Below the pieces are notes generated by a model. It was not told where the DNA came from. It ran no database searches and saw only the letters and a program-made list of their open reading frames with translations. Below are positions 12,603 through 16,238 of a stretch of 64,000 nucleotides of DNA, piece after piece (position 1 is the stretch's first letter; the number at the start of each line of letters is the position of its first letter). Position numbers and translations under genes: made by a program. The stretch lies in the sequence record PZ452579.1; one strand, given 5' to 3'. Source of the stretch: a phage.

Positions 12603-12868
12603 TAGTATTTTTCCTCAGGTCGAAATACTGCACGACACGCCCACATGCTGGCTTCTTTTAGATGTTGCTTAGCATACTTAAGAGCCTGCACTGCATCCAT
12701 ATCTTCTTTGGTTTGTTGCTCTGTTTCATTTTCTTTCAAGATATATGCTTCTTCAATCAGAGCATCAAACATCAATCCAAGACGGACTTCTGCATCTTTA
12801 ATAGCGTTCACTTTACCGATTTTATCGTCGGTATGTGGCTTGTAGCCTTTAATATCTTCAATCGACAT
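12602..12868 (-). CDS. hypothetical protein (start revised to internal ATG with RBS)
   Basis: Track ORF 12602..13036 overlaps 12858..13082; internal ATG at 12866-12868 preceded by GAGGAAA gives an 88-aa product. Confidence 0.4.
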   Translation of the reverse strand: MSIEDIKGYKPHTDDKIGKVNAIKDAEVRLGLMFDALIEEAYILKENETEQQTKEDMDAVQALKYAKQHLKEASMWACRAVFRPEEKY

Positions 12869-13082
12869 AAGGAATTTCCTCATCTGTGGCAAGGTCATAT
12901 TCGACCAATTGGATAGGCTCATTAATACCATATCCACGTACAGTGATATCAGTTGTCGGATAGTTTCCAGTAATATCACCCGTTCTAAATGCTTCAATGA
13001 ATGATTGCTCGCCTGAGCAACTAAACCAGGCGGCAAAACATTTTAAAACATCTTCAGACCCTTCTATAATCAATTTAGACAT
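12858..13082 (-). CDS. hypothetical protein
   Basis: 74-aa ORF; start overlaps stop of the GrcA-like gene. Confidence 0.4.
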   Translation of the reverse strand: MSKLIIEGSEDVLKCFAAWFSCSGEQSFIEAFRTGDITGNYPTTDITVRGYGINEPIQLVEYDLATDEEIPYVD

Positions 13083-13444
13083 TATAGACTCTCAGTAAAG
13101 GTACGAGCGATAACGTCGCGCTGCTGTTCTGGAGTCAGAGAGTTAAAGCGAACTGCATAACCGGATACACGGATGGTCAGCTGCGGATATTTTTCCGGAT
13201 GCTTAACTGCATCTTCCAGAGTTTCACGACGCAGAACGTTAACGTTCAGATGTTGACCACCTTCAATTTTAACTTTAGGTTGATGTTCAATTTCAATTTC
13301 ACGGGCATTCAAACCGTAGAAAATTTCCGGGTCTACAATAGCGTCTTCTTTAAAAGTCTTAGAGACAATAATCCGGGCTTGAGTGCCGTCTTCAAAATAA
13401 ATAGTGCCTTTATGTGCACCTTCAAGAATTTGATATGCTTTCAT
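13082..13444 (-). CDS. autonomous glycyl-radical cofactor (GrcA/YfiD-like) protein
   Basis: 120-aa ORF; C-terminus ...[60 protein letters not shown] carries the glycyl-radical RVSGYAV motif. Confidence 0.85.
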
Positions 13445-13450
13445 ATAACC

Positions 13451-13648
13451 TCAATTAGAAAATAAATTTATCCAAGTTTTTTCTTTAATCAAAAATGGGT
13501 CGGAATTAAACGCCATTAAACTTTGAGTGATTAATCCCTTAAATGGCCCATCAATAAATTCCATTTTGAAATGCGGAATACTAGTCATCAACCGTGCATT
13601 AGGAGCAGTACAAAGAACTTGCTGCCCTGCGAACGGACCTTTAGTCAA
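13451..13648 (-). CDS. hypothetical protein
   Basis: 65-aa ORF. Confidence 0.35.
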   Translation of the reverse strand: MTKGPFAGQQVLCTAPNARLMTSIPHFKMEFIDGPFKGLITQSLMAFNSDPFLIKEKTWINLFSN

Positions 13649-13755
13649 ACGATATCGTTTAGGTTTAAAATGGTAAATCTCATAATTTTCTACAAGGGCC
13701 CTTTTATTGCATACTGGGCTGTTATATCAATACTCAAAAACTTCAATAGTGGTCA

Positions 13756-14295
13756 TCATTGCATTCCAATCACAAAAAATTGAGGACGAGCATTACCGCC
13801 GATGCAATATTTGCTTTTGCAGCAGTGCTGTAATGTTTTAATGTGGACGTTGTAAATCTTATCCATATCAGGAGCTTTAATAGGCTCGTCAATTATATAC
13901 AGAATACGAGAAAGCGTTAATCCACGGAATTTAGAACCTTCATTGCCAATAAAACTACGAACAGAATCAGTAAATAAACGGAATCGAATATCATCGCTAG
14001 AATAACGAGAAAATTCTTTTTCAATGTTGCCAGCAGAAATTTTAGCATAAGCTGAAGTATTAGAAAGAACAATAACTGTTCCGCCATCATACAACCAATT
14101 AGCAGCAAAGTTAGTCACAGCAATTGATTTACCGGATTGACGTCCACCGTCTAAACGAAGTGTACAGTACTGTTTGAGTACGTCTTCAAACGGTGGGATA
14201 TAACCATTCTTACAAATTTCTTCTACTCTAGCATCAGAATGGTGTGTAAAAGCATTCATCAGGGATAGATAAGGACCAGTTAAAAATGTTCTCAT
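13756..14295 (-). CDS. hypothetical protein with Walker-A-like motif
   Basis: 179-aa ORF; DGGRQSGKS motif; weak promoter-like GTTTAC upstream. Confidence 0.5.
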   Translation of the reverse strand: MRTFLTGPYLSLMNAFTHHSDARVEEICKNGYIPPFEDVLKQYCTLRLDGGRQSGKSIAVTNFAANWLYDGGTVIVLSNTSAYAKISAGNIEKEFSRYSSDDIRFRLFTDSVRSFIGNEGSKFRGLTLSRILYIIDEPIKAPDMDKIYNVHIKTLQHCCKSKYCIGGNARPQFFVIGMQ

Positions 14296-14356
14296 TTAGT
14301 TTCTCTTTTAGGTTGGGGCCATTCCGTGGCACATGTTAGGTCCTTCGACTCGCTAT

Positions 14357-14394
14357 GTAAACCCATTACCGCATTGCGCTCGACCTTATTACAG
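14357..14394 (-). promoter_or_regulatory. weak early-type promoter candidate
   Basis: GTTTAC with poor -10 (TAACAT) upstream of 13756..14295. Confidence 0.3.
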
Positions 14395-14468
14395 GTTGGA
14401 AAAGGTACATCACTCAGAGGACTCGACGTTCATGAGGAGAGGTTGCGTTTCCCTTTATTAGGCAAGAA

Positions 14469-14798
14469 TTATACTCTAGGCTTTTGAGCTTGTTTGGTAT
14501 TGGATTCCCATGCGGCTTTGGTAATTTTGTTAGCGGCATAACCAAAGGCATTAGATAGAACACCTTTAGAGTTGAATACATCCAATCCAATAAGTACACC
14601 GGCTGTGTTAAATTTAGGAGCAAAGTACGCATTAGTTTTAGAAAGAGCTTTTTTCAATTCAGGGTCTTGAACCAAGCCATCAAAAACGCCTTTACTATTT
14701 ACTTTATATGTTACTTTGGGATTTTTACCTTCTTCGATAGCAGCTTTCTGTTCCGCAGATAATGTAACTTCAGTGATAAACTCTTGATACGTTTTCAT
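14469..14798 (-). CDS. internal-protein-like capsid-targeted protein
   Basis: 109-aa ORF beginning MKTYQEFITE (capsid-targeting sequence, predicted prohead-protease cut after Glu10). Confidence 0.75.
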   Translation of the reverse strand: MKTYQEFITEVTLSAEQKAAIEEGKNPKVTYKVNSKGVFDGLVQDPELKKALSKTNAYFAPKFNTAGVLIGLDVFNSKGVLSNAFGYAANKITKAAWESNTKQAQKPRV

Positions 14799-14823: not shown

Positions 14824-15138
14824 TTATTCTTTAGGGAAGTTTTTAGAGTATGCGTCATAAAGTTTATTACCGATGCGACGGAAGACTTTAGCTGCAAAAC
14901 GGTTTTCAGGGTTTTTAATCATGATTTGCATCATGTAAGTTCCTGCATCCGAAAGAGCTTCTTCGTAGTACCCATTAATTTCTTTAAGAGTCCTACGTTT
15001 ACCACCAGGACCATCAACAGTAATTTTCCATTTACCTGTAGAAGTGCGGCTCGGTGGCTCAACTTGTTCAATCCAAATATAACCACCTTCAACGCGTTGG
15101 TTGGCGGATTCTGCAATAAATTCTTTATATGTTTTCAT
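14824..15138 (-). CDS. internal-protein-like capsid-targeted protein
   Basis: 104-aa ORF beginning MKTYKEFIAE; promoter element upstream (15156-15199). Confidence 0.75.
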   Translation of the reverse strand: MKTYKEFIAESANQRVEGGYIWIEQVEPPSRTSTGKWKITVDGPGGKRRTLKEINGYYEEALSDAGTYMMQIMIKNPENRFAAKVFRRIGNKLYDAYSKNFPKE

Positions 15139-15202: not shown

Positions 15203-15463
15203 TTAAGCTTTACCGCCAGAAATAATTCCGAAGTTGTTAAAATCGTATCCAATATCGTCAACATCTACTTTAGGACTTACTACAACATAAGCAATTTCAC
15301 TACGTTTTGCATAGGTGTTGATTTCTTTACCATCGCCACCTAAGAAAGAATACCCATTACGTTTTAATGAGCCAAAGTCTTCCGCATCACCAATGAAAGC
15401 TTTAACTTTAAATTTGGGGTCTTTGGCATCTGCTTCAGCTATAAATTCTTGATACATTTTCAT
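15203..15463 (-). CDS. internal-protein-like capsid-targeted protein
   Basis: 86-aa ORF beginning MKMYQEFIAE. Confidence 0.7.
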   Translation of the reverse strand: MKMYQEFIAEADAKDPKFKVKAFIGDAEDFGSLKRNGYSFLGGDGKEINTYAKRSEIAYVVVSPKVDVDDIGYDFNNFGIISGGKA

Positions 15464-15941: not shown

Positions 15942-16238
15942 CTATTTTTCTGAAGCGCCTGAAATATATTTTTCAAGTCGTTGCTTCATTAGCGAGCCGT
16001 TCTTAGCGATTTCTTCCGGTTTATCGCACATACGTAACAAGGCTTCAAGCTTAGCGATATCGCTGGTACGTTCAAATTTGCGAGTATCTATCTTACTAGC
16101 AAGTTCAGAAATACGTGCTAATAGACTTTCGGCTTCAACCAAAGCTGCACCTAGCTTAGTTGCAAATGTGTCAGTAGCTTCGTTAAGAATAGATTCTGAT
16201 AAAAATTCACTATATGTTTTCATATATACGCTTTCCAA
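15942..16238 (-). CDS. internal-protein-like capsid-targeted protein (ipII/ipIII position)
   Basis: 98-aa ORF beginning [10 protein letters not shown]; immediately downstream of gene e. Confidence 0.7.

Follow-up and report, generated by a model that had tools for sequence, protein, structure and literature searches.

A vs.6-type glycyl-radical cofactor gene of a Mosigvirus-like phage: probably an old phage gene with a catalytic half recently overwritten by host grcA

The vs.6 homolog and its surroundings

The window analyzed here is the whole stretch of phage DNA, 64,000 nt in length (PZ452579.1). A complete open reading frame (ORF) for a small glycyl-radical protein was found on its minus strand, exactly at the position that a preliminary description of this DNA had given. 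The features of the gene are listed below.

13082..13444, minus strand: phage GrcA ORF from the ORF list, complete, 120 aa, ATG start
13449..13452, minus strand: putative Shine-Dalgarno-like GAGG, 4 nt 5' of the ATG, read from the sequence
13265..13444, minus strand: N-terminal half, codons 1-60, phage-type; counterpart of the disordered residues 1-60 of YfiD
13094..13264, minus strand: E. coli-derived tract, codons 61-117; beta-strand, glycyl-radical loop and C-terminal helix
13151..13171, minus strand: RVSGYAV glycyl-radical motif, residues 92-98, from the sequence
13160-13162, minus strand: codon GGT of Gly95, which equals Gly102 of YfiD and Gly734 of PFL in the alignment to 6OWR and 1H16
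13082..13093, minus strand: codons 118-120 and stop (GAG AGT CTA TAA), phage-type 3' end

T4 vs.6 (NP_049730, Y06I) is the ortholog, with 112 of 120 residues identical in a global alignment. The gene is located between homologs of vs.7 and vs.5, an order that matches T4 and vB_EcoM_TU01, and, as in T4, denV lies upstream of it and regB downstream. The ORFs beside it matched phrog_2049/29719 and phrog_1986. Its nucleotide sequence was 98.9-99.2% identical to genes annotated as "autonomous glycyl radical cofactor" in Mosigvirus-type E. coli T-even phages. One carrier of such a gene, vB_EcoM_TU01, is classified as Mosigvirus JS09, and deposited genomes contain products 100% identical to the window protein. 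Phage homologs of the gene number ~1,600. The source phage is a Mosigvirus-like T-even phage.

The GAGG upstream of the ATG is conserved in T4 and TU01. At the other end, a vs.5-like ORF (12858..13082) starts at 13082, and the stop codon of the vs.6 homolog overlaps its ATG as TAATG. The sequence GAGAG, 6 nt before this ATG, is a possible ribosome-binding site. Codons 118-120 all differ synonymously from those of E. coli (GAA AGC CTG) and are the same as in RB16. A scan for promoters and terminators around the gene gave counts no higher than chance.

Several neighboring genes had features of their own. The vs.7 homolog (13451-13760, minus strand) has a TGA at 13727-13729, at about codon 10, where vB_EcoM_TU01 has TGT (Cys), and its longest remaining ORF is 65 aa (13451..13648) compared with 102 aa in TU01; the TGA could reflect a nonsense mutation, a pseudogene, or a sequencing error. 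In the vs.8 homolog (13756-14400, minus strand), the longest ORF is 179 aa compared with 217-219 aa in TU01 and T4, and near 14373 it has a gap of 1 nt compared with TU01, which suggests a 5' frameshift or another start. Four small minus-strand ORFs flank denV (14469-14798, 14824-15138, 15203-15463, and 15942-16238) and have MKTYQEFI(T/A)E-like N-termini, which resemble the sequence that targets T4 internal proteins to the capsid. Of the four, three are located between vs.8 and denV; T4 ipII and ipIII lie beyond denV.

Family assignment and domain layout

The Pfam family PF01228 (Gly_radical) matched residues 60-101 with 67.3 bits (cutoff 22.2, 2e-18). The best-scoring family was NCBIfam TIGR04365 (spare_glycyl), whose alignment covered residues 18-120. 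The whole protein scored 159.1 bits against its equivalog cutoff of 170, and it fell 11 bits short because the N-terminal half is divergent. PHROG 1209 (phrog_1209) matched over the full length, with residues 1-120 on profile positions 1-121 (9.1e-63). AlphaFold2 run on the single sequence gave a mean pLDDT of 41.

The closest solved structure by sequence was E. coli GrcA (6OWR, 2e-42), followed by pyruvate formate-lyase (PFL; 1H16, 3e-26). The architecture found was that of GrcA, a small stand-alone protein with the RVSGYAV loop and, at its C-terminus, a helix that together duplicate the PFL C-terminus. Residues 57-120 aligned with residues 696-759 in the C-terminal domain of PflB (1H16/2PFL), including the radical loop. 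Unlike PflB, the window protein is a stand-alone protein of 13-14 kDa without the catalytic barrel, and its identity to that domain is about 80% rather than 100%. The region it shares with E. coli GrcA/YfiD is essentially the structured domain, YfiD residues 61-127, which has the fold of PFL 693-759 (PMC8683613). The radical motif is the same as in E. coli GrcA, and the mechanism is presumed to be the same. Differences from E. coli GrcA are the N-terminal half and the score below the TIGR04365 cutoff. The genes also differ in location, the window gene being in a lytic-phage early-gene block (the vs-denV region) and E. coli grcA in the ung-grcA locus. We place the window protein in the phage Vs.6/Y06I family rather than among the plain bacterial-type GrcAs. 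It is partly derived from bacterial GrcA and probably works like it.

Amino-acid identity to E. coli GrcA

In the global alignment, window residues 61-120 were identical to E. coli GrcA residues 68-127 at 60 of 60 positions, RVSGYAV included, whereas residues 1-60 were identical at 15 of 60 (25%) and this half was 7 residues shorter. The preliminary description had claimed that the last ~60 residues match enterobacterial GrcA and that the N-terminal half is divergent. Both claims are literally correct.

The C-half protein is, however, 93-100% identical across Enterobacterales. GrcA C-halves of Citrobacter, Serratia, Pectobacterium, and Erwinia had 100% amino-acid identity to that of E. coli, with third positions 53-78% identical; in those of Serratia, Pectobacterium, and Erwinia and in the C-half of phage RB16, third-position identity was about 53-65%. 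For RB16 itself, the values were 100% at the amino-acid level, 83% at the nucleotide level, and 53% at third positions. As the protein is nearly invariant, purifying selection suffices to explain the identity, and amino-acid identity alone is no proof of recent capture. These data leave room for a different history, namely one ancient capture of the whole gene, after which extreme purifying selection kept the C-half and the N-half drifted, with no recent exchange. The invariance of the C-half protein and the saturated synonymous divergence of RB16-type phages at full amino-acid identity speak for such a history, as does an N-half that is detectably homologous to bacterial GrcA from about residue 18-21.

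The C-half at the nucleotide level

Synonymous sites gave a different picture. Over codons 61-117, the window was identical to E. coli grcA at 169 of 171 nt, including an exact run of 119 nt; T4 was identical at 170 of 171 and Tequatrovirus OES_C-2 at 171 of 171. Over the last 60 codons, 175 of 180 nt were identical (97.2%; third positions 92%), all these tract counts resting on only 57-60 codons. The five differences were all synonymous, and three of them were in the last three codons. T4 differed from E. coli at three of the 180 nt.

Bacteria with the same C-half amino acids had 84-93% nucleotide identity to E. coli over the 180 nt. In a GTDB scan for grcA, of which the best 80 loci were considered (K. 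pneumoniae not among them), Escherichia sp. MOD1-EC7003 was 98.9% identical over this half, Citrobacter amalonaticus 92.8%, and Salmonella 83.9%; 92.8% was the highest value for a species outside Escherichia among the loci listed. When the 60 codons of the C-half were compared with E. coli, the window had a dS of 0.12 and T4 one of 0.05, whereas Citrobacter had 0.36 and Salmonella 1.0. With codons 61-117 alone, it was 0.05 for the window and 0 for T4. At residues identical to E. coli, the same codon was used at 55 of 60 positions in the C-half and 7 of 14 in the N-half (Fisher p = 9e-4). RB16 used the same codon as E. coli at 31 of its 60 C-half positions (p = 1.5e-6 against the 55 of 60 in the window). 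The 48 nt directly upstream of codon 61 were 58% identical to E. coli, and the whole N-half was 45% identical.

Selection on the protein cannot yield 92-98% third-position identity or E. coli codon usage, which weighs against the single ancient capture. The nucleotide data show that the catalytic half is recent host-derived DNA. The tract comprises only codons ~61-117, and the gene is an evolutionary chimera in which a phage N-half is joined to the tract at codon 61. The host gene capture put forward in the preliminary description therefore holds for codons ~61-117, on nucleotide data, and does not hold for the whole gene, of which the N-half is old, phage-type, and AT-rich.

Codon usage and composition

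Codon tables were made from 56 long ORFs of the window (phage) and 39 genes around grcA (E. coli). The mean log2(phage/E. coli) per codon of the N-half was +0.22, at the 27th percentile of phage 60-codon windows; only 0.2% of the E. coli windows were as phage-like. The C-half scored -0.15, a value as low as that of only 0.15% of the 670 phage 60-codon windows; it was within the E. coli range and near the score of E. coli grcA itself. Codons 61-117 alone scored slightly below codons 61-120. The two halves, whose codon usage was to be compared according to the preliminary description, thus differed, with an E. coli-like C-half and a phage-like N-half. Codons rare in this phage were present in the C-half (CTG five times, CCG twice, and CGT/CGC six times). 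GC3 rose from 0.25 in the N-half to 0.38 in the C-half, and the tract coincided with a local GC bump to 0.46.

The N-terminal half

The N-half architecture (MKAYQILEG...) was common to the window, T4, Klebsiella Jiaodavirus JIPh_Kp122, and RB16. The window N-half had 72% amino-acid identity to that of JIPh_Kp122 and 50% to that of RB16; each phage N-half was 23-25% identical to the E. coli N-half. HMM alignments nevertheless reached into this half from residue ~18-21, indicating a diverged GrcA N-half and not foreign sequence. Between the window and T4, its dN was 0.055 and its dS 0.44 (dN/dS ~0.12). The N-half is old and phage-specific, and by these values it is under purifying selection.

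The junction has a structural counterpart. The phage identity boundary, residue 61, equals YfiD residue 68 and is therefore near the YfiD domain boundary. YfiD without residues 1-60 showed about fourfold lower radical installation and weaker binding to cleaved PFL, and its catalysis was unimpaired (PMC8683613).

Uniqueness and direction of the transfer

The whole 64-kb window was compared by megablast with 5,426 complete E. coli genomes. Each genome gave one grcA match, at 13082-13266, and weaker E. coli pflB matches fell on the same grcA stretch; no match was found outside this 185-nt tract. E. coli grcA is compositionally homogeneous, and both of its halves diverge equally from relatives, in species-tree order. 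In codons 61-117 of 11 T4/Mosigvirus-type sequences, no derived site common to all phages was found, so the inferred ancestral phage tract is the present E. coli allele. The allele of a cryptic Escherichia clade differs from this ancestral tract at codons 68 and 94. A search for the window variants CAT65 and CCA105 as E. coli alleles, a test for separate donors, returned no genome among the 5,426 above 97.3% identity.

The tract was present at 95-99.5% identity in 639 phage records, so the chimera is not an assembly artefact. A transfer from phage to E. coli, or an artefact by host DNA contamination or chimeric assembly, would account for the bare similarity and for nothing further. We regard both as extremely improbable, since the identical chimera recurs across the 639 independent phage records, the two halves of E. 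coli grcA diverge equally along the species tree, and the tract is rich in codons that E. coli prefers and the phage rarely uses (CTG, CCG, and CGT/CGC). On these sequence comparisons, the transfer ran from host to phage, with E. coli in the narrow sense as the donor.

Age of the tract and number of events

T4 Vs.6 resembles the window protein in being a 120-aa protein encoded between vs.5 and vs.7 and in being chimeric. It differs by eight substitutions, seven in the N-half and one in the C-half (R73H in T4), by the N-half dS, and by its last three codons. The dS between the window and T4 was 0.12 in the C-half, compared with 0.44 for the N-half, and five neighbors (vs.1, regB, vs.4, vs.8, and denV) had values of 0.53-1.65, the contrast between the halves being significant only at p = 0.03. 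Within Tequatrovirus, the dS was similar in both halves. As the C-half dS is far below that of the N-half and the neighbors, the tract is younger than the split between the genera of Mosigvirus and T4. Either each genus acquired a tract separately, or recombination between phages spread one tract.

Klebsiella phages give clear evidence of an independent event with a different host type. The tract of Jiaodavirus JIPh_Kp122 had a GC3 of 0.60, and its residues L77 and E81 were of the Klebsiella/Enterobacter type. It differed from K. pneumoniae grcA at 7 of 171 nt and from E. coli grcA at 21 of 171. A metagenomic Jiaodavirus-like contig differed from K. pneumoniae grcA at 4 of 171 nt and from E. 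coli grcA at 21-22 of 171. The Klebsiella Jiaodavirus tracts were thus 96-98% identical to K. pneumoniae, whereas the tracts of E. coli phages differed from K. pneumoniae grcA at 22-23 of 171 nt. The 5' boundary in the Klebsiella phage was also at the start of EGGQHLN, and the 48 nt upstream were 38% identical.

The Klebsiella donor was searched with a 39-mer from JIPh_Kp122, which matched 23 bacterial contigs in gut metagenomes (56-58% GC, bacterial-type N-half). Their grcA was 100% identical to K. pneumoniae grcA (PLSDB match). A phage-derived bait brings an ascertainment bias, which was corrected by dropping the 39 nt; with the bait removed, the bootstrap value for "closer to own host" was 0.92-1.0. 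A K. pneumoniae-type tract in Klebsiella T-even phages indicates that replacement by host sequence has occurred at least twice.

The PLSDB record that names the Klebsiella donor, CP125156.1 (5.37 Mb, K. pneumoniae), is chromosome-sized and carries the chromosomal grcA. The same is true of NZ_OL790696.1, NZ_CP141089.1, and NZ_CP134663.1 (4.8-4.9 Mb, E. coli). Such chromosome-sized records are a caveat for plasmid statistics.

Other phages had no recent host tract and a more phage-like codon usage, namely RB16/RB43-type phages, Karamvirus-like phages (L090-L094; C-half 85-88% identical in amino acids, GC3 0.22-0.30), and T5-like phages (80% amino-acid identity). As many lineages have no recent host tract, the replacement is sporadic and not general. 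In the T5-like phages (L126-L152, with Escherichia phage IrisVonRoten and Salmonella phage S124; ~104-123 kb), the homolog matched over ~122 codons, and its C-half was ~80% identical to host GrcA without recent host-like DNA. In Vibrio phage PVA23, the match was limited to residues 48-120.

Two groups of IMG/VR candidates were rejected. L112 resembled a phage tract matched to Yersinia (91% to Y. artesiana), but its N-half is of the bacterial type (MITGIQ...). L153-L162, candidates for phage GrcA, are ORFs of 155-564 aa or fragments that matched via a PFL-like C-terminus only. All of them have the look of bacterial DNA, or of prophage flanks, within the viral collection.

Taken with the third positions and codon usage, the low window-T4 dS of the C-half and the match of Klebsiella phages to K. 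pneumoniae instead of E. coli make a single ancient capture very unlikely; the synonymous-site data already contradict this history. The most fitting reading is that of an old phage gene in which host grcA recently replaced the catalytic half, and did so at least two times, in separate lineages of phages.

Proposed function and mechanism

The gene and its function were already known. E. coli T-even phages have it as an annotated core gene, and characterization of the T4 ortholog dates from 2001. PMC8683613 credits Knappe and co-workers (Wagner et al. 2001, BBRC 285:456) with the finding that O2-cleaved PFL is restored by YfiD of E. coli and by T4 Y06I after the PFL activase has installed the radical. 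The preliminary description had mentioned that T4 Y06I is reported to repair oxygen-damaged PFL, and that report is real, in the form in which PMC8683613 presents it. T4 Vs.6 thus reconstitutes cleaved PFL biochemically in that account. PFL rescue by the window protein is suggested by analogy with the T4 ortholog, to which it is 93% identical overall and at 59 of 60 residues in the C-half.

We consider it quite probable that the window protein is the Mosigvirus ortholog of Vs.6/Y06I, a stand-alone spare-part glycyl-radical domain with a tract copied from the host and a PFL-repair mechanism. O2 would cleave host PflB at Gly734, and the phage protein would bind to cleaved PflB. There, its beta-strand, RVSG95YAV loop, and helix, which make up the C-terminal domain, would stand in for the PFL C-terminus that was lost. 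Radical installation on Gly95 by the host activase PflA (PFL-AE) would follow, and PFL activity would resume. In this way, fermentative production of acetyl-CoA, formate, and ATP may be maintained in microaerobic infected cells.

T-even infection shuts off host gene expression, so a phage copy would be useful. It may supply the protein once the host gene is off.

As to its origin, the tract (codons 61-117) was copied very recently from the chromosomal grcA of E. coli, presumably when the phage gene and host DNA underwent homologous recombination or gene conversion. Recombination limited to the half similar enough to pair would place the junction at the start of the conserved region. Codons 118-120 may have stayed phage-type because they carry the overlap with the downstream gene and possibly its GAGAG ribosome-binding site. 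Selection would retain the tract for its perfect fit to host PflB and PflA.

The protein could instead act elsewhere, as a spare part for NrdD, the anaerobic ribonucleotide reductase of the phage, as a decoy that titrates PflA, or as a blocker of host GrcA. With NrdD and NrdG, T-even phages have a glycyl-radical enzyme and an activase of their own, which gives such a target some appeal, and the phage-specific N-half is conserved at a low dN/dS. In Aeromonas phage phiAS5, the GrcA homolog adjoins nrdG, an arrangement in line with the same idea. The catalytic half, however, equals that of GrcA and has 77-80% identity to the C-terminus of PFL, which points to PFL. Restoration of PFL activity in vitro by T4 Y06I (Wagner 2001, as described in PMC8683613) points the same way, and the fact that host grcA replaced the tract repeatedly speaks for selection on its fit to host PFL and PFL-AE. 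Action at another target is thus unlikely, and PFL repair is the reading that we follow below.

Discussion

Since GrcA annotation of the vs.6-type gene is already found in hundreds of phage records and the T4 ortholog has been characterized, the gene itself adds nothing new. The searchable literature gave no prior account of a nucleotide-level grcA mosaic. What is added here is a host-derived tract that is domain-precise, recent, and repeated.

A parallel is known from marine cyanophages, whose psbA and psbD are reportedly host-phage mosaics of photosystem genes (Zeidner 2005; Sullivan 2006). As in the window, an auxiliary metabolic gene is said to exchange segments with the host copy by intragenic recombination. 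The window case differs in the protein and phage group, and its exchange is limited to one structural domain. It also concerns T-even phages, which are virulent and degrade the DNA of the host.

The mosaic bears on a practical use of the gene. In a 2026 paper, grcA was chosen as a core-gene PCR/qPCR marker for E. coli Straboviridae (PMC12845203, Table 3). Its forward primer is in the phage-specific N-half, and the reverse primer is at the 3' end beside the E. coli-identical tract (PMC12845203). Primers placed wholly in the 3' half of grcA would also match E. coli chromosomal DNA.

The locus is a clean, small example of recent sequence flow from a host into a strictly virulent phage, limited to one domain and found with a second host too. 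It offers a tractable system for measuring how frequently T-even phages recombine with host DNA. It is also a natural experiment on which GrcA residues must match host PFL and its activase, as the E. coli type is set apart from the Klebsiella type by E77L and K81E only, and it gives a handle on the role of the N-terminal half in spare-part proteins.

On balance, we lean towards the view that in virulent T-even phages the PFL spare part is kept in line with the current host by repeatedly overwriting its catalytic domain with the host's chromosomal grcA. Tequatrovirus and Mosigvirus would carry an E. coli-type tract and Jiaodavirus a K. pneumoniae-type tract, while a phage-specific N-half with its own function is kept. 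If this is true, an auxiliary metabolic gene would undergo domain-precise "host-updating" in phages by which the DNA of the host is destroyed.
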